From: a virus
Lineage: Duplodnaviria > Caudoviricetes
IMG/VR virus record: IMGVR_UViG_3300026101_000001
Span: 1-64,000 of that record
Length of the DNA: 64,000 bases
Direction: 5' to 3' (one strand)
The position numbers and the translations under genes are program-made. This document shows, piece by piece, positions 33,816-59,935 of the stretch (position 1 is the first letter of the stretch; every line of letters starts with the position of its first letter). Below the pieces are notes generated by a model that was not told where the DNA came from, did no database searches, and saw nothing but the letters and a program-made list of their open reading frames with translations.

Positions 33816-33845
33816 ATTTAACCTATAACAAAGCGGAGATTGACG

Positions 33846-36846: not shown

Positions 36847-36961
36847 TCAATCAGGCATAACCTTAGGCGAAAAAATTTTTAAAAATTTTTTCGCCTTTTT
36901 TACGTTTCTTTGCACACATTGACAATGTGTGTAAGTGCTTTCAATTGATGAACTTTTCCAA

Positions 36962-36990
36962 CTACAAAAACACAATTTAATTGTGTCTTT
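36962..36990. promoter_or_regulatory. Palindromic operator-like site, copy 1
   Basis: CTACAAAAACACAATTTAATTGTGTCTTT; 27/29 identical to reverse complement of 56361-56389. Confidence 0.6.
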
Positions 36991-46188: not shown

Positions 46189-46210
46189 CTCTTAAATTTG
46201 GAAATTGACG

Positions 46211-47110
46211 ATGCAAATAAACGTAAACAGTTATTTTTGTGGTGCTGGCCTGATGGATATTGGGCTGATAAATGCGGGATTAACCATTAACCAGTCTTTT
46301 GAAATTGATAAAGACGCGGTTAAGACGTATCGCGAGAATATTGGCCACCATGTTCAACAGTGCGATTTGACTGAAGAGCTCGTGTTAAACCAAGAGGAAT
46401 GTGATGCGATGGTCTTCACCTACCCTTGCACCAAGTATTCCACGATAGGCGATATTCACGGTGTAAGAACGGGTGACGATTTATTCCTTCATGCTTTGCG
46501 TCACTTGGCCATTCGCAAGCCCGATGCTTACGTGGTGGAAAATGTGCCAGGAATGAGAGCGTTTCCGCTGGTAATGGAAGCTATGACAAAGTTGCCGGAT
46601 TACTACGTTCACGTTTTTTGTCCGGTCCAATCTCAGCATTGGTTACCCCAGCGAAGAGATCGTCTGATTATTTTTGGTACCCGCCGACCTTTTGAAGTTC
46701 GCCCCCCGAAGAGTTGTCGTCCTGTGACGCTGGCTGAAATTGTCGAGCATGACCCAGAAGTAACCTTGCCCAGCGCTATTAAAGCGCGAATGTCGGGTAA
46801 GTACCGTGACCTCCCAATAATCAGCGACCCCAGCAAAGGAGATATAGCGCCGACTTGTGTTGCTCACTACGCCAAGGATAAATCGACGCGCTTGGTTGCT
46901 GACAAGCGATTCCCAATGGGTGTTCGTCCTTACTCAGTGCGTGAGTATGCGAGGCTGCAGGGTGTACCAGACTGGTTTACGTTCCCTGTCTCGGCTACGT
47001 CGGCATATCGCCAGATTGGTAATGGTGTGTCAGTGCCGAAAGGTGAATGGGCAGGCGGCGAGTTGTTCCGCTATTTTCAACAAAGTAAAAAATTAGACAA
47101 GGTGGCTTAA
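46211..47110 (+). CDS. DNA cytosine-5 methyltransferase
   Basis: FCGAG motif I, YPC motif IV, ENV motif VI, QRRDR motif VIII, RQIGNGV motif X. Confidence 0.92.
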   Translation: MQINVNSYFCGAGLMDIGLINAGLTINQSFEIDKDAVKTYRENIGHHVQQCDLTEELVLNQEECDAMVFTYPCTKYSTIGDIHGVRTGDDLFLHALRHLAIRKPDAYVVENVPGMRAFPLVMEAMTKLPDYYVHVFCPVQSQHWLPQRRDRLIIFGTRRPFEVRPPKSCRPVTLAEIVEHDPEVTLPSAIKARMSGKYRDLPIISDPSKGDIAPTCVAHYAKDKSTRLVADKRFPMGVRPYSVREYARLQGVPDWFTFPVSATSAYRQIGNGVSVPKGEWAGGELFRYFQQSKKLDKVA

Positions 47111-47353
47111 GTGAAGTACGAACTGGTGTATCACGACAGGTTTACGCATGAGCGCCGTATGCAAGAGTTCTTTGCTCCGAATCCTGAGAAAGCAAAAGAG
47201 CACGCAGACAGCATGTGTGAGCGACGTAAAGTGCCTTACTGTTTAGTAGATGCAAATGGCCGAACGTGGGAGCGAGATTATAGTCGAGAGACTATGAAGC
47301 TCTATGATTGGTATGAAGTAACAACCCATAGCCCGATACGGGCTGCAAGCTAA
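47111..47353 (+). CDS. Hypothetical protein
   Basis: GTG start abutting the previous stop. Confidence 0.5.
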   Translation: MKYELVYHDRFTHERRMQEFFAPNPEKAKEHADSMCERRKVPYCLVDANGRTWERDYSRETMKLYDWYEVTTHSPIRAAS

Positions 47354-47411
47354 AAACGGGGGAGAATATTCCCCCCTCTTAATTAACTTTTAAAATTGGA
47401 AATTGACGATC

Positions 47412-48215
47412 ATGACTGATGTTAAACGTATCAATAAACAGGCTACGGCCACGATGCTGTTTGTAATTGCTGACGCGATTACACAACCACGCTTCGTAAA
47501 GTTCTTAGAAGATAACACCTCTCGATTTGGCTCAGATGGTACCGGTACCGTTGAAGACCTTCACGACAAGTTACGCCAGTTATTTGATTTTCAGCTTAAG
47601 CAAGCGGTAAGTGTGTATTCCGAGCAGTATTCAGTTTTGAGCTGGGAAGAAAAGTTACAAATGATGAGTGAAAAACTTATCAACTTAGGCAACCGCACGG
47701 CTCACAAGTGGCGTGTAAAGCTACACCAAAGCAGTAAGAAATTTATTGTCCCTCGCGGTGTGAGTTTATCGAAAGCTTTAACTGACTTGATGTTAAGTGC
47801 CCAGCCTCACCGAATAATTCTAAGTCAGTCTCGAGCCCCTACTCATCCAGACCATGACTGGCGTTGGGGTGGCGATATTGCCAATGCCGATATCTTTCTG
47901 GCCGCGCTATATAGTTTCGTTATTGCCAAAGACACGCTGGCCTACGACACAGGCATGATGTTTTTTGAAGACGTATTAACCGAGTTCGGCAATAAAATCG
48001 AATGGTTCGTGAAGGGGTATCCACACGACTTATTGGTTGTTGACCGAATGATAAATACGGGTGATCAGCGCAAAGACTATCAAGGTATCGGGCTACGCAC
48101 TGAGTTCTGTTCTACGTGGTCTATCACTTCCGAGACTAGAAATATCTTGAGCAGTCACGGTTATCGAGAACTACGCCATAAAACGTATGGCCGAACTAAA
48201 CAGGTGGCCGCATGA
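47412..48215 (+). CDS. Hypothetical protein
   Basis: GGAAATTGACGATCATG start. Confidence 0.7.
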   Translation: MTDVKRINKQATATMLFVIADAITQPRFVKFLEDNTSRFGSDGTGTVEDLHDKLRQLFDFQLKQAVSVYSEQYSVLSWEEKLQMMSEKLINLGNRTAHKWRVKLHQSSKKFIVPRGVSLSKALTDLMLSAQPHRIILSQSRAPTHPDHDWRWGGDIANADIFLAALYSFVIAKDTLAYDTGMMFFEDVLTEFGNKIEWFVKGYPHDLLVVDRMINTGDQRKDYQGIGLRTEFCSTWSITSETRNILSSHGYRELRHKTYGRTKQVAA

Positions 48216-48439
48216 AGAACCATTGCGAAAACCCTGAGTATGATGTGACGCAAGGACAAGTAGTGTGTCATGACTCAGGTACATTTAACAAAATTGTTGG
48301 TGAGGCTCTTGAAAACATGACTGAAGACAACTGGTTTACACAAGAGCTTTGGCTTTCAACGGTTGAGCACAAAGGTAAGCGTGTTCAAGTTCAATTGAAA
48401 GTAATGGCAGACGATTTAAGCTTTATAGACGAGAACTAA
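48212..48439 (+). CDS. Hypothetical protein
   Basis: ATGA overlap. Confidence 0.55.
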   Translation: MKNHCENPEYDVTQGQVVCHDSGTFNKIVGEALENMTEDNWFTQELWLSTVEHKGKRVQVQLKVMADDLSFIDEN

Positions 48440-48442
48440 ATC

Positions 48443-49594
48443 ATGATGGATAAAATTGAATATAAACTCCTGGCCTCTCGAGGCGTGAAAGGTTCAAGAC
48501 CTTTTTACCAAGTACTTATCCCTTTGCGCCAGCTAAGTTCTCTTTTGAAACTAGACGATCACTGGGATATTACTAAGCGTAGTCAACGTTTAGTGAATGT
48601 CCCGCGTGCTAAGAAGTTCGCAAAGTATTTAATCGAGAACCACAAGAACGATACGATGTTTGTCGTTCCACCTTTAGTGGGCTCGTTGGAGGGGGACTTT
48701 GACTTCGTTGAAGTGCAAATGGACCAGTATCGAAATATCGGCCATTTGCGTGTGGACCTCGATGCTCAAATGCTTTTGTTTGATGGCCAGCACCGAGCAA
48801 AAGGGGTTCAGCTTGCTTTGCAAGAGTATCCGATGCTTCAAAACAGCCAAGTTTCGATTATGCTTTTTCCGATGCTGGATTTATCTGAAAGACAACAGGC
48901 ATTCCATGATATTAATTCGATGCAAAAGGTACCGGTTGATTCAATCCGCATTGCATACAACAACGCCGACCCGATAGCTTCGACATTGATGGATACTGTA
49001 CAAGCTTCGGATATTCGTGCGGTGGTTGAGTATGAGAAGAACAGTTGTACCGGTGACTCAGATAAATTCTGGGCACTAAAACAGCTCAATGAGTTTGCCA
49101 AGCTATTTTGTGGTAAAGACAACTCACCAGAGCGCATGGCGGAATATTTAAAAGTCTTCTTAGACAAGATGTTTATCACTCAAAAACTAAGGCAGTTGTA
49201 TACGTCTCACCCTCACGTTTGTAAGGAATATATACACCCGTCGGCGCAGTTCACGAGACAATTTTACATTCTTCCTTTCACAGTGACACTTAAGGCATTG
49301 GCCATGCTCTTTAGAAAAGCGGAAGAACTTGAAATTGGGCCTGAAGTGCTAAGTAACTTCTTAGAAGAAAGTAGCCCCAATAACGAGAAAAACTGGAACT
49401 ACTTCGATAAAGACAATGGGAAATGGGAACATCGTTGTGTATCCCATGACTACAAAATGAAAAGTAACGCCGTTGCGGTAAGAATGACCTACTATCAAAT
49501 GGCAAAAGACGCGGGTATTGAGTTGTCGGAAGAAGAAATCGCGGAAGAAGAAAAAGTCCTGGCTGAAGCAAAAGCGATTGCTGCAGCCGTTTAA
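48443..49594 (+). CDS. DGQHR-domain protein, DndB-like
   Basis: SQRLVNVPRAKKFAKYL, VVPPLVGS, LFDGQHRAKG, QQAFHDIN. Confidence 0.82.
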   Translation: MMDKIEYKLLASRGVKGSRPFYQVLIPLRQLSSLLKLDDHWDITKRSQRLVNVPRAKKFAKYLIENHKNDTMFVVPPLVGSLEGDFDFVEVQMDQYRNIGHLRVDLDAQMLLFDGQHRAKGVQLALQEYPMLQNSQVSIMLFPMLDLSERQQAFHDINSMQKVPVDSIRIAYNNADPIASTLMDTVQASDIRAVVEYEKNSCTGDSDKFWALKQLNEFAKLFCGKDNSPERMAEYLKVFLDKMFITQKLRQLYTSHPHVCKEYIHPSAQFTRQFYILPFTVTLKALAMLFRKAEELEIGPEVLSNFLEESSPNNEKNWNYFDKDNGKWEHRCVSHDYKMKSNAVAVRMTYYQMAKDAGIELSEEEIAEEEKVLAEAKAIAAAV

Positions 49595-49651
49595 CCTGGG
49601 GGGAATGTTCTCCCCCTTCAATTAACTTTTACAATTTGGAAATTGACGATT

Positions 49652-51037
49652 ATGACTAATCAAACTGTTGCTACAAAACACGAAGATATCGAACGCGCTA
49701 CTTACTCCCCTGAAGATAACAAGCTTCGTATTTATCCTATCAATCGCCTAGATACAGACCTTTACAACGAGCTTAAGGAACTGGGCTTTGGTTGGGCGCC
49801 AAAACAAGAACTCTTCGTAAAACCTTCATGGTCCCCTGAAGCGGAAGACTTATGTATTCGCTTGGCCGGCACGATTGAACCTGAAGACACGACGATGGCC
49901 GAGCGTGCCGAAGCGAAGGCTGAGCGGTTAAAAGCGCTTGCTGAAAAGCGTGCTGACCAAGCGCGAGGTTTTAGTGCTGCGGCGAACAATATGCAATTTG
50001 GTGATCAACCTATCCTTTTAGGCCACCACAGCCAGCGTAAAATGCAGAAAGCGCAAGAAGCTCAAGAGCGTAACGAAGAACGCGCCAAAGAAGCCAGCTC
50101 AGCGGTCCGCTATTGGAACTGGCGCATGATGGGTACTATTGCTCATGCCAACCACAAAAATCGCCCTGACGTTATTTATAGACGTATTAAAACGTTACTC
50201 ACGGACTTGCGAAAGCAACAACGCTATTTGCACGCTGCAGGGGATTGCTTATCTCTTTGGGAACGCTGCAAAGGTATGGAGGATGCCGAGAAGCAAAAAG
50301 AGTTTGCTTTGATGATTGCGAATTACCGTTGGGATATCTGCATTTCAGATAGTTACCGCGACATTAAGGAAGATAAGAAACCTTTATCGGAAATTATCGA
50401 CGCCAATATTGAGCTAGGTACCAAGCGTAAGAACGACCAGAACTTACACCGCAAGATAAACCATATCTTGAACCGTCTTACTTACGAACGGGCTCAGTTG
50501 GGGGAAGTTGAATATTTTACCGGTAAGCTTACCGCCCCTGTATTGCAAACGTTCCTTAGAACGCATGGCGCGGATAAACCTAAAGCGACCAAATCTGACG
50601 TTGGTTGGATTGCGGAGTGTGACAACGACTTACCTATCCACATTGGTACAGGTTCGACACTGGAACTGGAAGAATTGGAATGGCGCGACCTGATGTATGA
50701 GGTGGGCTATGAAGTGCCGGTTCCTAAGCCGAAGGCTCCCCCGATTGTTAACCTGTCACCGGAAGAAGTAAAAAGCGTAACGGTGAAAATGTGGAGCAGC
50801 GCGAACAAGTACCCTATCGTCTCAATGACGAAAGCGGAGTATTCAGCAACCCATAGTGAGCAGCGGGGCGTTAAGCCGAGTACCTGTGGTCAGTTCAGAG
50901 TAAAAGTTTGTCGAATTGTTCCTGAGGGCCAGGATTTTTGGAAAGGCGAATGGGCTGTGGTTTACCTAACGGACTCAAAGACGCACGCCGCTCCGAATTC
51001 AACGGCTCTTGAGTATGTGGAAGTGGAGACAGCCTAA
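49652..51037 (+). CDS. DUF3560-like protein
   Basis: TYSPEDNKLRIY, AERAEAKAER, GDQPILLGHHSQ, AVRYWNWR. Confidence 0.75.
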   Translation: MTNQTVATKHEDIERATYSPEDNKLRIYPINRLDTDLYNELKELGFGWAPKQELFVKPSWSPEAEDLCIRLAGTIEPEDTTMAERAEAKAERLKALAEKRADQARGFSAAANNMQFGDQPILLGHHSQRKMQKAQEAQERNEERAKEASSAVRYWNWRMMGTIAHANHKNRPDVIYRRIKTLLTDLRKQQRYLHAAGDCLSLWERCKGMEDAEKQKEFALMIANYRWDICISDSYRDIKEDKKPLSEIIDANIELGTKRKNDQNLHRKINHILNRLTYERAQLGEVEYFTGKLTAPVLQTFLRTHGADKPKATKSDVGWIAECDNDLPIHIGTGSTLELEELEWRDLMYEVGYEVPVPKPKAPPIVNLSPEEVKSVTVKMWSSANKYPIVSMTKAEYSATHSEQRGVKPSTCGQFRVKVCRIVPEGQDFWKGEWAVVYLTDSKTHAAPNSTALEYVEVETA

Positions 51038-51654
51038 TGGATTCATCAGTGTATGTAAGACCCAATAAACCCAAGCATGTTAAGGCACCGGAAAAAGTAG
51101 AACTCGAGCCTATCGAGTTCTCCGAGGCCCCAAAGCCTGTCGTTGTTCATGCCTCAACGGAATGCCACGTTACGCCCTATGATGTGGCGGAGCGTATGGT
51201 CGAGCTGTTGGAGTTGGAACCCGAAGATCACGTTCTAGAACCTTCGGGTGGTACCGGTAATTTGGTTAAGGCGGTACAAAACACCGGCCACTCAGCGGAT
51301 CTTATTACTATTGTCGAGCGTGAATACTCGTTGGTTGAAGCTTTGTTACAGCGTTTTTGTAGTGCCGATTGCGAGGGGGCTATCCCCTTGGTGCATCACG
51401 AAGACTTCCTTAGCTGGGCCGAGGCTCGTTACAACGCGGGGTATCGTTATGAAAAGATCATAATGAACCCCCCGTTCAAACAGGTAAAAAAGCATATGGA
51501 GGCCGCACGCAAGTTACTCCGCTTCACAGGGGTACTTGTTGCTGTGGTACCAACGTCGTTCGACCACCCCAGTTACGAGGAAGTCGAGACGTTACCCAGC
51601 GACACGTTTAGCACCTGTAAGGTGTTCACGAAAATCGTGCGGTATGAGGGTTAG
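51037..51654 (+). CDS. SAM-dependent amino (N6A/N4C-type) methyltransferase
   Basis: VLEPSGGTG motif I and IIMNPPF motif IV. Confidence 0.85.
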   Translation: MDSSVYVRPNKPKHVKAPEKVELEPIEFSEAPKPVVVHASTECHVTPYDVAERMVELLELEPEDHVLEPSGGTGNLVKAVQNTGHSADLITIVEREYSLVEALLQRFCSADCEGAIPLVHHEDFLSWAEARYNAGYRYEKIIMNPPFKQVKKHMEAARKLLRFTGVLVAVVPTSFDHPSYEEVETLPSDTFSTCKVFTKIVRYEG

Positions 51655-51656
51655 CC

Positions 51657-51848
51657 ATGGCTATTTTAAAAGTTGAGTGGCGGTATGTGTATAAGGCCAA
51701 AGGTAAAGTAGACCCCAACCTAGACCGGAAGCTAACAGCTCAAGTATTACCAATGATATCTAAGGCCCTAGAAGATAATCAAACCGAAGGGTTTCTGGAT
51801 GCGGTATCTGAAGGAGACAAACTGAAAGGCCATTGGATGTTGGTCTAA
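51657..51848 (+). CDS. Hypothetical protein
   Basis: GAGG RBS; 63 aa. Confidence 0.5.
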   Translation: MAILKVEWRYVYKAKGKVDPNLDRKLTAQVLPMISKALEDNQTEGFLDAVSEGDKLKGHWMLV

Positions 51849-51898
51849 CTACAGGGGGGAATGTTCCCCCCTTTTAATTAACTTGTTGGAAATTGACG

Positions 51899-52930
51899 AT
51901 GCAAACGAAACTAGTATTACAAGATGATACGTACTTCCATGCGCCAAGTGTGGACTTAGATAGCTACGATCACATTATCGTATGCCACTCTATGGGGAAA
52001 GATAGCTGGGCCGCATTACTTCATATCCTGGCGGAGGGTGCAGACCGAAAGAAAATAGAAATTTGGCACCATGAAGTAGATGGCCGTGAAGGTTCTAACC
52101 TAATGGATTGGGCGTTTATTTCAGACTATGCAAAGAAAGCCTGTACCTCGATGGGACTACCACTCTACTTTAGTTGGCTACAAGGGGGGTTTGAAGGTGA
52201 AATGCTTAAAGAGAACACTATCAGTCAACCGATACTTACTCAAACGCCGGATGGCCTGTTGCTACTAGAGAGGGATACTAACCGCTCTAAGCCCGCTACC
52301 CGTTTAAGGTTCCCCCAGCAGTCCGCGAGTCTCCAAACAAGATGGTGTAGCTCAGCACTGAAAATTGACGTAGCCCGACGCGCTTTAAATAACCAAGACA
52401 GGTTTAAGGGTAAACGCACGTTAATGATAACTGGGGAACGTCGTGAAGAGTCGAGTAACCGAGCTAAATACAATCAGCTAGAGCCCCATGCTTGTGATAC
52501 TCGTTATGGTCGAACAGCTCGGCACGTTGATGCTTGGCGTCCCGTTCTTGAGTGGTCAGAACAAAAAGTCTGGGACACATTAAAGCAAGCGGGTGTAGTT
52601 GCACCTGTCCCCTATCGCTTAGGCTGGAACCGTTCAAGCTGCCAAGCGTGTATTTATAATCACGGGAGTATATGGGCCACCATGAAGAAATACTTTCGTG
52701 AGCGTTTTGAAAAGGTGTTGAATTACGAAAAGCAATTCAACACAACCATTAGCCGTAGCAAGAAAAATATTGATGAGTTAGCGGCGCTCAACAAACCGTT
52801 AGAAATATCGGACTCGGCAGCGCTGGCCCAAGCCCAGCAATCCGAATATGTTTTACCTATATTCTGCCACCCTGACGACTGGGAAATGCCTGTAGGTGCA
52901 TTCCGCTCTGAAGGTTGCGGTAGTGTTTAA
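51899..52930 (+). CDS. PAPS reductase family (PP-loop) protein
   Basis: SMGKDS PP-loop, RWCSSALKI, TGERREES.NRA, WRPVLEWSE, SCQAC. Confidence 0.82.
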   Translation: MQTKLVLQDDTYFHAPSVDLDSYDHIIVCHSMGKDSWAALLHILAEGADRKKIEIWHHEVDGREGSNLMDWAFISDYAKKACTSMGLPLYFSWLQGGFEGEMLKENTISQPILTQTPDGLLLLERDTNRSKPATRLRFPQQSASLQTRWCSSALKIDVARRALNNQDRFKGKRTLMITGERREESSNRAKYNQLEPHACDTRYGRTARHVDAWRPVLEWSEQKVWDTLKQAGVVAPVPYRLGWNRSSCQACIYNHGSIWATMKKYFRERFEKVLNYEKQFNTTISRSKKNIDELAALNKPLEISDSAALAQAQQSEYVLPIFCHPDDWEMPVGAFRSEGCGSV

Positions 52931-53945: not shown

Positions 53946-54002
53946 AACCCTGAAAGGGGGAATGTTCTCCCCCTCTTGAAATTAACTTGTTGGAGATTGA
54001 CG

Positions 54003-54842
54003 ATGCACCCTGAACTATCAAAACAACTAAAGGCAAACTGCCAGAAGTTAAGCCTAGACTTTAACACCCTTGATCTAATTGGTGAGTCTGAGACTCAAAT
54101 AAAAGATATAACAATTAAAATCGAGCGTGATGGGGATGCTGAAAGCCCTCGTGAGTGGGATAACGTGGGCACAATGGTGTGCTGGCATAGTAGATACAAT
54201 TTAGGTGACGAACAACCTTCAGTAAGCTACCAAGACTATCGTATCAGTATGGTAGAAGAAGTTGAGCCAGGATTTGAGGCGATGTTGGAAAGATTAGAAC
54301 ATAACTGGCCTTCAACAAATTGGGATGCCCAAGGAACTAAAGATTACCAAGAACTGGTTGAGGCGAAGATTGAAGCGCGACTTGATAAATACTACTTCAT
54401 CCTCCCACTTTACCTTCACGACCATTCTGGAATTACTATGAATACAGGGGGGTTTTCGTGTTCTTGGGACTCTGGCCAAGTTGGTTTTATCTACGTCACA
54501 AAAGAGAAAGCCCGTGAAGAGTATGGTTTTAAGCGTTTAACAAAAGAACGTATTCAAAAGGTCTTTGAATTCTTAGATAGTGAAGTTAAAACCTATGCCG
54601 CGTATTTAGAGGGGGATGTGTATGGTTATGTTATCGAAGGCCAAGACATTGATGATTCTTGCTGGGGTTACGTTGGCCCTGACGGTGAGGGATGGGCGTT
54701 ATTAGAAGCTTTATCGATAGTAGCTAACCATAAAAAAGAGCGTGCTGGCAGTCGAATTCAAAAAATTAAGACTTGGATCAAAAACCAAGTCCCGTTACTA
54801 AAACGTCGTGAACTGGCAACAGAACTACCAATACTGTTATAG
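54003..54842 (+). CDS. Hypothetical phage/MGE protein
   Basis: SPREWDNVGTM, LPLYLHDHSGITM, WDSGQVGFIY. Confidence 0.7.
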   Translation: MHPELSKQLKANCQKLSLDFNTLDLIGESETQIKDITIKIERDGDAESPREWDNVGTMVCWHSRYNLGDEQPSVSYQDYRISMVEEVEPGFEAMLERLEHNWPSTNWDAQGTKDYQELVEAKIEARLDKYYFILPLYLHDHSGITMNTGGFSCSWDSGQVGFIYVTKEKAREEYGFKRLTKERIQKVFEFLDSEVKTYAAYLEGDVYGYVIEGQDIDDSCWGYVGPDGEGWALLEALSIVANHKKERAGSRIQKIKTWIKNQVPLLKRRELATELPILL

Positions 54843-54935
54843 TGATATCGAAATGTTGCCGCAGTTAGGCAACATTTCGCCTCTTATATCACTCCTTATG
54901 GCTTGAAACGGTCTAAAACTCTTAGACTTTCGTTT
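54841..54935 (+). other. Two bulged inverted repeats upstream of the peptide ORF
   Basis: AGTGATAT+CGAAATGTTGCC pairs with GGCAACATTTCG+ATATCACT; AAACG+GTCTAA pairs with TTAGAC+CGTTT. Confidence 0.7.
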
Positions 54936-54994
54936 AGGCACATGCTTTGCAATTAACTCCATAGAAACAACCAAACCTCTTATGGAGAAACACA

Positions 54995-55147
54995 ATGAAA
55001 AAATTAGGATTCGCAATCGCGCTAGTACTTGGTATGGGTTCAACAATGGCTATGGCTGATGTTGGTAGTAATGTTGTTGTCCCAAAACCAGCGGACAACC
55101 CTAAAACCGAATCACTCAAGCCTAAAAAGCCTACGGTTGGTTTTTAA
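54995..55147 (+). CDS. 50-aa secreted peptide precursor (signal peptide plus 29-aa mature peptide), absent from the ORF track
   Basis: GGAG RBS 7 nt upstream; MKKLGFAIALVLGMGSTMAMA|DVGSNVVVPKPADNPKTESLKPKKPTVGF; A-x-A cleavage site. Confidence 0.78.
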   Translation: MKKLGFAIALVLGMGSTMAMADVGSNVVVPKPADNPKTESLKPKKPTVGF

Positions 55148-55158
55148 GTCTAGAAATT

Positions 55159-55183
55159 AAAAGAGCGGCTAAGCCGCTCTTTT
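55159..55183. terminator. Bidirectional terminator between the peptide and membrane-protein genes
   Basis: AAAAGAGCGGC-TAA-GCCGCTCTTTT. Confidence 0.8.
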
Positions 55184-55927
55184 AAATAGTACTTCCAATT
55201 TTCTAGGTATGGACCCTGCGAGGTCCTTGACGTAGAACTCTTGAATACTCGCGTGGAACAACAACATAAGCAACATAATAGTCTGGGTAATAAAGACGAT
55301 ATTAAACAGGAAATAGAAGCTAGGTAAGTGTAGCGCGTACTCAATATCAACGAGACGATAACCATAAAGTAGTGGGCCTGTCTCATGAATACCAAAATGT
55401 ATCGTGAATATGTGGTAGTAAACCGCAATAGCAAAACAGATAAACCAGCACAACTTATACACCATACATAACCATGTACCTAGGTTTGTGTCTTCAGTTT
55501 TATCCAGCAATTTGAATCCAGCTTCTCTAAATCTTTCAGACCTAATAAGTTGGTTCGCTACCCAAAACTGGAACTTAACCCGATACTGGTACATCACCAT
55601 GGTTAGAATACCTGGCACATAAATCATGGCAATAGCGGTATGGAGTGTAGGACTTAGCGTAAACATTAGGCTGGCAATCGCCTGTTCAGAGATTGAAGCA
55701 ATTATGATCAAAGCCAAAACGATACGATTATTGAAACCCTTAACCATTACGCCAGCTAAGATAACGCATGAAAACATCACCGCGTAGTAGCTGAGCATAT
55801 CGGACAGTGAGTTTAGTTGCCATTTCCCTTCCACAAGGAAGTTGTTTAAAACAGCCGTAAAGATAAGTAGGGCCGTAACGAAAAGCGCGAACCGTAAGCC
55901 GTAGGTTTTAAAGAAGTGACGGTACAT
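55169..55927 (-). CDS. Polytopic inner-membrane protein (~6 TM), unknown function
   Basis: Six hydrophobic segments; starts 4 nt after the XRE stop. Confidence 0.75.
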   Translation of the reverse strand: MYRHFFKTYGLRFALFVTALLIFTAVLNNFLVEGKWQLNSLSDMLSYYAVMFSCVILAGVMVKGFNNRIVLALIIIASISEQAIASLMFTLSPTLHTAIAMIYVPGILTMVMYQYRVKFQFWVANQLIRSERFREAGFKLLDKTEDTNLGTWLCMVYKLCWFICFAIAVYYHIFTIHFGIHETGPLLYGYRLVDIEYALHLPSFYFLFNIVFITQTIMLLMLLFHASIQEFYVKDLAGSIPRKLEVLFKRAA

Positions 55928-55931
55928 AAAA

Positions 55932-56252
55932 TTACTCCCAAAACGTCGCTAAGAATCTTTTAAAATCCGAGAATGGGATATCCGATAAGGTAATTTTACT
56001 CACTACCGCACCGAGTCCCTTCTTCATGTGAGCGCGTTTTGCAATTTGTTGGTATTTGTAGAATTCTTCTGTGGAAATTTTGCCGTATCGCTCGGCATTT
56101 GAAATAGTATTCTTGTGAACGTCCGCAGCAATAGCGAGTTCTTCTTGCGTCAATCGATAATTCTGGCGCATGTTTTTAAACTTTCGAGCTATTCGCCTAC
56201 GACGCTCTAGCTCCCAGGGTGGTTCTATATTATCGTCAATTTTCTTAGACAC
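55932..56252 (-). CDS. XRE-family HTH regulator (repressor candidate, no peptidase domain)
   Basis: FKNMRQNYRLTQEELAIAADVHKNTISNAER; GGAG RBS, GTG start. Confidence 0.85.
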   Translation of the reverse strand: MSKKIDDNIEPPWELERRRRIARKFKNMRQNYRLTQEELAIAADVHKNTISNAERYGKISTEEFYKYQQIAKRAHMKKGLGAVVSKITLSDIPFSDFKRFLATFWE

Positions 56253-56360: not shown

Positions 56361-56389
56361 AAAAACACAAATAAATTGTGTTTTTGTAG
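56361..56389. promoter_or_regulatory. Palindromic operator-like site, copy 2 (inverted relative to 36962)
   Basis: AAAAACACAAATAAATTGTGTTTTTGTAG in the divergent XRE/ligase intergenic region. Confidence 0.6.
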
Positions 56390-58292: not shown

Positions 58293-58582
58293 CTTTGGAG
58301 GACCTAAACAATATGCCACAAAACTTACAAGCGGATTACTTTGTAAAGCTAAAGAAAGTGCAAGCTGAGTTGTCCCAGCTTCGTAACCTAGGTTCGAGTG
58401 CTAACTTTAAAGCTTTGTTGAAGGATATTGAGTCCGCTAACAAAATGGCCGATACGCTCGGGATTAAGCAACCTTATCCCGACTCCTTAGTGAGTGAAAT
58501 TGAGGCCATGCAAGACCGTTTAACGCGTTATCAGCAAACGGGATTAGACGTCCCGAATCTTTCTAATGTCGTTAAACACTAA
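58289..58582 (+). CDS. Hypothetical protein
   Basis: 97 aa; start codon uncertain. Confidence 0.55.
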   Translation: MTLEDLNNMPQNLQADYFVKLKKVQAELSQLRNLGSSANFKALLKDIESANKMADTLGIKQPYPDSLVSEIEAMQDRLTRYQQTGLDVPNLSNVVKH

Positions 58583-58844
58583 AACCCAACCCAAGTTGGA
58601 GCCGGTATCGCTCCAACTTGAGGTTGTATCCCCCCTGCACAAGGCTATTGGGATGCGAATAGACTTCCACACCACGTTTACGTTTGATGATGATGGTGAG
58701 GCGTTAAGGAAGAAACTCGGGATGGCTGGAAGTAGTTTCAGTCGATTAAGACGGGGTACCAAAGAAATAACTTTGACAGACTTACAAAATCTGGCAGAAT
58801 TCTTTAACACTGGGGTAATAAATATTATCAAATCTAATTTTTAA
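58566..58844 (+). CDS. HTH (XRE/Cro-like) protein
   Basis: LRKKLGMAGSSFSRLRRG..ITLTDLQNLAEFFN. Confidence 0.7.
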   Translation: MSLNTKTQPKLEPVSLQLEVVSPLHKAIGMRIDFHTTFTFDDDGEALRKKLGMAGSSFSRLRRGTKEITLTDLQNLAEFFNTGVINIIKSNF

Positions 58845-59563: not shown

Positions 59564-59593
59564 GAATAATTGACGATAAGAGACACGATAGCC

Positions 59594-59935
59594 ATGTTGA
59601 AATTTTCAGAAAGACTCGCGCTTTTGAAGAATGCGATACGAGAAAAAGACCTTAAGCAGAAAGACCTTGCAGACGCGCTAGGCTGCAATCAAGCCAAAGT
59701 TTCTTTGGCTCTTTCTGGGACTAAAGAGGTCCCCATGGAATTTTTACTCGAGATACTTCTTCAATCTGAGTTCCCAATCGAAAGAGTGTTCCCCGACTTG
59801 AAAAACGATTTACAAGCGATTGTGACGTTGCTTGAGAAAGGGGCCAGTCAACAGGCCACGACTAATTTACTTAATTTGATGAAATTAACTAACCATTATG
59901 ACCAGCATTCAAAAGATACCAAAGCAGCCAGCTAA
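59594..59935 (+). CDS. XRE-family HTH protein
   Basis: LKQKDLADALGCNQAKVSLALSG. Confidence 0.8.
   Translation: MLKFSERLALLKNAIREKDLKQKDLADALGCNQAKVSLALSGTKEVPMEFLLEILLQSEFPIERVFPDLKNDLQAIVTLLEKGASQQATTNLLNLMKLTNHYDQHSKDTKAAS

Follow-up and report, generated by a model that had tools for sequence, protein, structure and literature searches.

What does a gene for a small exported peptide do when it lies beside the repressor gene of a temperate phage? The question is raised by a locus in IMG/VR virus record IMGVR_UViG_3300026101_000001 (83,406 bp, rated complete by CheckV, G+C 44.6%), the first 64 kb of which is here called the window. At positions 54,995-56,252 of the window, a 50-aa open reading frame (ORF) converges on a predicted two-gene operon encoding an XRE-family regulator and a membrane protein with six predicted helices. 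An earlier reading of this DNA (the original prediction) took the arrangement for a possible Gram-negative analogue of the arbitrium system of Bacillus phages, with the peptide sensed by the membrane protein to tune the XRE repressor, and named a rexAB-like exclusion module as the alternative. We found that the peptide is, as far as its sequence can tell, a genuine and conserved Sec-type secreted product, that it and the membrane protein are orphans confined to this phage lineage, and that both are missing from a relative that retains the repressor. These results point, tentatively, to an accessory cassette attached to the repressor, with an output at the cell envelope.

The peptide and its membrane-protein neighbour

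The 50-aa ORF, its good ribosome-binding site (RBS), its Sec-type signal peptide and its 29-aa mature part were all confirmed where the original prediction had placed them (Table 1). The peptide of the window opens with an MKK n-region, followed by a hydrophobic core of ~14 residues and by AMA before the predicted cleavage site, and by inspection it has the features used by Sec and signal peptidase I, namely a basic n-region, a hydrophobic h-region and small residues at -3/-1. The mature part, predicted to be periplasmic, is rich in Pro and Lys and holds an invariant K42-P43-K44. Positional counterparts with a signal peptide occur in three distant lineages (L012, L013 and L014), where GGAG or GGAAG stands at the place equivalent to the RBS of the window. 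All lineages in the peptide alignment (A2) have KK, then 12-17 hydrophobic residues, then AMA, ALA, SLA or AVA (by inspection), and the mature part is 27-29 residues long across the four divergent lineages aligned. Its sole invariant element there is K-P-K, preceded by hydrophobic residues and followed 2-3 residues later by Pro; the C-termini differ between lineages, and conservation lies in this internal core. Across lineages, the mature part carries a net charge of between +3 and -5, the latter in L012.

Comparison with L008, a relative with 77% identity to the window in the membrane protein, gave 24 synonymous and 6 non-synonymous differences in the peptide ORF, corresponding to a proportion of changed synonymous sites (pS) of 0.68 and of changed non-synonymous sites (pN) of 0.05. 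These differences indicate that the peptide ORF is translated, and with pN values in the same comparison of 0.16 for the membrane protein and 0.08 for the XRE protein, it is the most constrained of the three genes. Public gene callers have also annotated the short ORF in several assemblies. The original prediction had staked its case on conservation of the peptide ORF and on co-occurrence of the three genes in relatives, and both hold: the ORF is under purifying selection, with the signal peptide and KPK kept in four lineages, and the three-gene layout is kept down to 29-39% identity of the membrane protein. Pfam, PHROG and PADLOC gave no match for the peptide, and detectable homologues are found only within this phage clade.

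Two known kinds of product were considered for the peptide and rejected. An o-spanin (Rz1-like) identity does not fit a peptide that in the window has no Cys and in no lineage has a lipobox, and a DegS- or BAM-type C-terminal Phe signal does not fit a C-terminus that varies between lineages. Separately, synonymous changes relative to L007 are spread unevenly over the gene, with 1 in the signal-peptide half (54995-55057) and 15.5 in the mature half (55058-55144), which suggests either that the 5' half is constrained at the nucleotide level or that a recombination breakpoint lies within the gene.

Hydropathy gives six hydrophobic spans for the membrane protein, and the positive-inside rule places both of its termini in the cytoplasm, with the charge bias assigning the N-terminus, the 63-67 turn, the 114-150 loop and the C-tail to that side. 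The six helices named in the original prediction thus stood, and the loop between the last two helices, predicted to be periplasmic, came to ~25 aa (residues 181-205) and not to ~30. Invariant residues in the alignment of the protein (A3) are GFNN 64-67, E81, E145/T147/N148, Q215/T216 and a C-tail signature, E230-x-Y-x-KDL-x-G-x-x-P241; those within the membrane are E81, Y47/Y48 and Q215/T216. Across four lineages, the invariant positions make up 0, 0 and 12% of the periplasmic loops, 80% of the GFNN turn, 36% of the N-terminus and 30% of the C-tail, and on these figures the conserved face of the protein appears to be cytoplasmic, not periplasmic.

Searches did not connect the membrane protein to any known family. 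Pfam, PHROGs and PADLOC gave no match, Pfam-A at E values up to 10 gave no family for the protein of the window or for three distant homologues, and a sequence profile search of the PDB gave none either. The AlphaFold2 (AF2) model is of moderate quality (predicted local distance difference test score, pLDDT, 71.7). Foldseek against the PDB and BFVD returned only rhodopsin/GPCR-like rows at TM scores of 0.2-0.37; the best hits of a wide VIA-align search were designed helical bundles (Z 8.7, within the stated noise for helical models); and the best ESM Atlas scores in the searches on the membrane protein and the peptide, 0.84 and 0.80, fell below the lead threshold. An intramembrane protease of the CPBP or AgrB type was rejected, as the protein has no conserved His/Cys/Glu motif set.

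A HMMER pass over 1.84 billion representatives returned only five relatives of the membrane protein, three of them full-length, at 39, 31 and 31% identity. These three lie in L012, L013 and L014, syntenic phage fragments in which the membrane-protein gene directly follows the XRE gene and a convergent small ORF lies behind a GC-rich hairpin after the membrane-protein gene, so that the layout of XRE gene, membrane-protein gene and convergent peptide gene recurs where the membrane proteins are 29-39% identical to that of the window. All three genes are also present in L034, an intermediate relative (membrane protein ~79% identical). The distantly related Alteromonas phage AD45-P1 lacks the three-gene module, tblastn searches of 50,697 phage records found no match to either the membrane protein or the XRE protein, and alignment scans of genome, viral and metagenome contigs added no new lineage. 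No carrier of the peptide gene or the membrane-protein gene alone was seen among the ~10 loci examined.

The XRE gene is kept at this site in all relatives, including L027, a 75-kb Tara scaffold in which it is still divergent from the ligase gene. The XRE protein of L027 is 68% identical to that of the window, closer than the XRE proteins of L012-L014, and the stop of its gene abuts the stop of a convergent homologue of the gene at 53976-54842. The membrane protein and the peptide are both absent there, at the site and within 5 kb on either side. Because L027 keeps the XRE gene without the membrane protein or the peptide, the pair appears to be one dispensable accessory unit, and the repressor would work without it.

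A separate observation concerns L033 (positions 635-1429), a 2.5-kb Tara scaffold in which an in-frame fusion joins the first 59% of the membrane protein to SMC/AAA_21-like sequence, and a ZipA_C gene comes next. A chimeric assembly probably accounts for this, though it may be a real recombinant; the scaffold was left out of the comparisons.

Regulation of the locus and the lifestyle of the phage

The XRE protein matches Pfam HTH_3, a helix-turn-helix (HTH) family, at an E value of 9.2e-5, with 22.8 bits against a cut-off of 23 and a whole-frame score of 23.9 bits; it also matches a PHROG named 'transcriptional repressor' (2.7e-5) and the PADLOC model 'Control_protein' (3.4e-4). It has a five-helix lambda-repressor-like DNA-binding domain, and its AF2 model (pLDDT 86.8) is closest in fold to C.BclI, C.Esp1396I, HipB and SinR. 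The restriction-modification C proteins and HipB, on which the model superimposes best, share with it a palindrome upstream of the gene; here, however, the downstream gene codes for a membrane protein and not for a nuclease or kinase, and the XRE protein has extra N- and C-terminal helices. In the Pfam and PHROG matches it is a single domain, with no peptide-binding domain, no tetratricopeptide repeats (TPR) and no self-cleavage domain. The XRE protein is likely the switch repressor of the phage. As the original prediction had stated, its gene is divergent from the ligase operon, across 214 bp, and this region carries a conserved palindrome.

The palindrome (Table 1), which is a reasonable operator candidate by its sequence, is also present ahead of the XRE gene in L008, L012 and L013. 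A second copy lies 19.4 kb away at 36966-36990, in front of the left early block, and has the same orientation with respect to the genes downstream of it; the copies are 91% alike over 32 nt. A further palindrome with a 9-bp arm (36912-36930) adjoins this second copy.

The XRE and membrane-protein genes are probably one operon, since the XRE stop is 4 nt before the membrane-protein ATG, a GGAG lies within the final XRE codons and the corresponding gap is 2-6 nt in every lineage. A further hint of coupling between the two proteins comes from a single lineage: the XRE proteins of carriers share 31 invariant positions, and L027, which has no membrane protein, has changed 4 of these, including the penultimate Trp. 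By eye, the alignments show no motif common to the XRE tail and the N-terminus of the membrane protein.

Upstream of the peptide gene, we found a sigma-54-type promoter with one mismatch to TGGCAC-N5-TTGCA, from which the transcript is predicted to start at ~54961, ~33 nt before the peptide ATG. Two such sites occur in the 83-kb genome, compared with 0.74 expected, and the second is intragenic. In the alignment of five lineages (A5), GGCA-N-A-NN-CTTTGC, with GGCA and CTTTGC invariant, is the only block conserved upstream of the peptide; it ends 39-44 nt before the start codon, and the remaining upstream DNA cannot be aligned. The site in the window is near-identical to Salmonella sigma-54 promoters that have been listed as experimentally bound, such as glnK (PMC3844500). 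No conserved -35/-10 pair of a sigma-70 promoter was found upstream of the peptide, and no Sigma54_activat domain in the phage.

Hairpins bound the peptide gene on both sides. The one after the upstream gene (-19 kcal/mol, z -5.2) has an invariant stem and a variable loop in close relatives, and long hairpins of partly different sequence take its place in L012, L013 and L014; it is probably a terminator or 3' stabiliser of the upstream operon that insulates the peptide gene. This palindrome, 57-87 nt upstream of the sigma-54 site, could be an activator site or a terminator; a CRP site was rejected, as the palindrome half-sites face the wrong way. The shared bidirectional terminator that the original prediction had placed between the convergent genes proved stable on both strands (-20.6 and -21.2 kcal/mol; z -5.5 and -6.0), with no shuffled sequence as stable. 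It includes the final four codons and the stop of the membrane-protein gene, is identical in close relatives and has equivalents in L012-L014. Because of the sigma-54 block, the lack of an activator in the phage and the separating hairpin, the peptide gene is predicted to form an insulated unit, reliant on the host for both sigma-54 and an activator.

The genome also carries 46 copies of ATTGACGA, for example at window positions 33839, 46204, 51892, 53996, 56473 and 58864. Most of these read GGA(A/G)ATTGACGATG, in which the ATG is the start codon, at early and late genes alike. The peptide and membrane-protein genes do not have this start-associated motif, which is present at ~40 other genes; the XRE gene has a variant of it inside codons 5-7 (conserved I-D-D).

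We attribute the locus to a common temperate phage of a Gram-negative marine host, Alteromonas macleodii, because of its integrase, its provirus relatives, a RefSeq name and the numbers of contigs that carry its genes. A tyrosine integrase lies at the end of the record (PF00589, 75.5 bits), and two relatives with the same locus are classed as proviruses by IMG/VR, with the integrase at one end, which bears out the temperate lifestyle assumed in the original prediction. One member of the membrane protein's 90% cluster occurs on 352 contigs and has the RefSeq name 'hypothetical protein [Alteromonas macleodii]'; the commonest peptide-cluster sequence occurs on 453 public contigs and the commonest XRE-cluster sequence on 406. 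Each of the three proteins is thus found on hundreds of public contigs, which come from cultures of Alteromonas macleodii and from ocean metagenomes. The ligase DNA is ~70% identical to the ligase of Alteromonas podophage AD45-P1.

The phage is also contained in two isolate assemblies (L009 and L010) labelled Tenacibaculum sp. KUL113 and KUL118, a Bacteroidota genus. The G+C content, the use of Shine-Dalgarno sites and the RefSeq entry all favour Alteromonas over this label, and in one read set the phage assembles as a stand-alone 81.8-kb contig, which suggests mislabelled or mixed cultures, or an excised form of the phage.

Table 1 Coordinates of the features at the locus, as positions in the window
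Feature	Position	Strand	Description
12-bp-stem hairpin	54849-54879	+	Just after the stop of the upstream gene 53976-54842
Sigma-54-type promoter	54936-54951	+	GG (-24) at 54937-54938, GC (-12) at 54949-54950
Shine-Dalgarno GGAG of the peptide gene	54984-54987	+	7 nt before the ATG, read from the sequence
Peptide gene	54995-55147	+	50 codons: 1-21 Sec signal peptide, 22-50 mature peptide of 29 aa
Bidirectional GC-rich hairpin terminator	~55158-55185	both	Common to the peptide gene and the XRE-membrane-protein operon
Orphan inner-membrane protein	55169-55927	-	252 aa, six predicted helices, N-in/C-in
XRE-family HTH regulator	55932-56252	-	106 aa, GTG start, GGAG upstream; first gene of the predicted two-gene operon
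10-5-10 palindrome	56361-56385	both	XRE/ligase divergent region; candidate operator

Explanations for the peptide and membrane-protein pair

The explanation that we favour, at somewhat less than an even chance, is that the pair is an accessory cassette linked to the repressor, standing beside the switch and not forming part of its core, in which a periplasmic peptide gated by sigma-54 would partner the membrane protein in the lysogen and produce an effect at the envelope such as exclusion. The XRE protein would act as an autonomous repressor or as the controller of the divergent early region, and the membrane protein, translationally coupled to it, would always be produced along with the repressor, which means in the lysogen. 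The peptide gene, as a separate insulated unit (hairpin, sigma-54 promoter, RBS, ORF, shared terminator), would be on only when a host enhancer-binding activator is active. Its product would be exported by Sec and cut after AXA, leaving ~28 residues in the periplasm of the producer, where the invariant hydrophobic-K-P-K core may engage the outer-leaflet side of the membrane protein and alter its activity; Y47, Y48, E81 and the acidic loops are candidate contacts. The output would be felt at the envelope of the lysogen, most probably as conditional protection that excludes other phages or defends against them, much as lambda rexAB accompanies cI.

We count in favour of this explanation the purifying selection on the peptide, with signal peptide, length and KPK kept in four lineages; the recurring layout with its short gaps between the XRE and membrane-protein genes; the joint absence in L027 and the absence from AD45-P1; the conserved sigma-54 promoter in a phage without an activator; the integrase and the provirus relatives; and the absence of the start-associated motif from both genes. 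Several points weigh against it. Since every carrier belongs to a single phage lineage and is syntenic with the others, plain synteny could account for the co-occurrence, and one deletion spanning the adjacent genes could explain their joint loss in L027, which is therefore only modest evidence that they work together. Neither protein resembles a known exclusion or defence protein in PHROG or PADLOC. Furthermore, conservation in the membrane protein is lowest in the periplasmic loops and strongest in motifs on the cytoplasmic side, which points to a cytoplasmic partner or substrate that is absent from the favoured model.

Accessory genes attached to a prophage repressor are already known as a general kind. 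As in lambda cI-rexA-rexB, a polytopic inner-membrane protein is encoded directly downstream of, and coupled to, a temperate repressor gene, and judging from L027 it is dispensable for the switch. In PHROGs and PADLOC, however, there is no similarity to RexB or RexA, the locus has no RexA-like cytoplasmic sensor, and a gene for a periplasmic peptide is attached to it. The rexAB-like alternative of the original prediction fits the layout at least as well as signalling does, but not by homology. T4 Imm and Sp offer another parallel, in that a phage encodes both an inner-membrane protein and a small product that is exported to the periplasm; they have no sequence or family similarity to the pair, and T4 is virulent, with early expression, no repressor linkage and no sigma-54 control.

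A weaker contender, which we consider unlikely, is that the two genes are unlinked neighbours, the membrane protein having its own repressor-linked function and the peptide acting independently, under sigma-54 control, on a conserved periplasmic target of the host. The evidence of linkage comes entirely from one syntenic phage lineage, a single deletion accounts for the joint loss, the genes have separate promoters on opposite strands, and a KPK core that never varies, when the periplasmic loops are so poorly conserved, is more easily explained by a conserved target in the host than by a partner that evolves fast. Yet the tight convergent pairing with one shared hairpin persists down to ~30% protein identity while nearby genes come and go, and none of the loci that we examined carries one gene alone.

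Signalling of the kind that the original prediction had proposed seems to us distinctly improbable. It would have the peptide-bound membrane protein capture or release the XRE protein through its cytoplasmic motifs and so tune lysis versus lysogeny, with either a host sigma-54 signal or peptide from lysed kin as the input. The closest precedent is the Sdp system of B. subtilis. There, a six-helix protein sequesters its autorepressor in response to a secreted peptide, and sdpC, the secreted-peptide gene with its signal peptide, converges on the sdpRI operon (PMC2910880). The locus has the same layout, a secreted-peptide gene converging on an operon for a small repressor and a six-helix protein, and conservation in the membrane protein peaks on the cytoplasmic side (GFNN, E-x-TN and the C-tail). 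The XRE protein has no self-cleavage domain and therefore needs another route of inactivation, and its altered positions in L027 hint at coupling to the membrane protein, although this signal comes from a single lineage. There is no detectable homology to SdpC/SdpI/SdpR, however: the membrane protein does not match the SdpI family in Pfam, fold searches found only generic helical bundles, the regulator is XRE and not ArsR, and the system here is a phage element in a Gram-negative host, where the peptide ends in the periplasm, with a sigma-54 promoter for the peptide. L027 moreover retains a full XRE protein with a conserved C-terminus in the absence of both partners, and the lack of a motif common to the XRE tail and the membrane-protein N-terminus also argues against capture.

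The likeness to arbitrium (AimP/AimR/AimX) goes as far as a temperate phage with a small Sec-signal pro-peptide encoded beside a regulator of lysis and lysogeny. Here there is no AimR-type receptor with HTH and TPR, the sole adjacent regulator being the 106-aa single-domain XRE protein; the peptide gene is convergent, whereas AimP lies downstream of and co-oriented with its receptor gene; and an internal KPK core is conserved in place of a C-terminal hexapeptide. A ~3 kDa periplasmic peptide has no obvious route out of or into a Gram-negative cell, since it does not readily cross the outer membrane. What stood of the arbitrium-like claim is the genuine secreted peptide, the kept three-gene layout, the temperate phage and the divergent region with its palindrome; it is weakened because the repressor appears to be independent of the pair and lacks a peptide-binding domain, conservation of the periplasmic loops is weak, the promoter is of a host sigma-54 type and not the phage's own, and the outer membrane stands in the way. 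A full membrane-receptor route into a Gram-negative prophage switch, running from a host sigma-54 activator through the periplasmic peptide and the six-helix protein to an XRE repressor that is held or released, is at least as doubtful. If it existed, it would make induction or lysogeny respond to the physiology of the host, or to peptide released by lysed kin, in an Sdp- or arbitrium-like manner without homologous parts.

Equally doubtful is a toxin-immunity pair, in which a membrane-acting peptide made under host sigma-54 would hit the producer's own membrane or, after lysis, its neighbours, and the six-helix protein would confer immunity constitutively with the repressor: separate promoters for constitutive immunity and conditional toxin, two genes never seen apart and lost together, the convergent SdpC/SdpI precedent and a cationic peptide core facing an acidic outer face of its partner would all suit it, but the mature peptide, being hydrophilic and rich in Pro, contains neither an amphipathic nor a hydrophobic stretch, the net charge in L012 is unlike that of pore-forming peptides, there is no export route past the periplasm, and the peptide evolves more slowly than the membrane protein, unlike in an arms-race pair.

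The peptide-based phage decision systems known to us all belong to Gram-positive hosts and use cytoplasmic receptors, and to our knowledge the combination of the two orphans with a sigma-54 promoter has not been described. The module is a concrete and genetically tractable candidate for either a new envelope-level protection or a first membrane-receptor input to a prophage switch, and its relevance is increased by how common the phage is. Even on an ordinary reading, the locus offers a phage gene that is apparently driven by host sigma-54 and a small protein of a kind that the length cut-offs of annotation can hide.

Neighbouring genes

Two more small HTH proteins are encoded in the rightward operon after the ligase (59570-59935 and 58566-58844), one of which has matches among the PHROG families named 'transcriptional repressor'; both may serve the switch as Cro-like or secondary regulators. 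A probable DNA-modification block extends over 46205-52930, upstream of the locus, and comprises a DNA methylase and DndB-like, DUF3560, methyltransferase-like and PAPS-reductase-like genes, named from the annotations of the loci of relatives and from PHROG 424.

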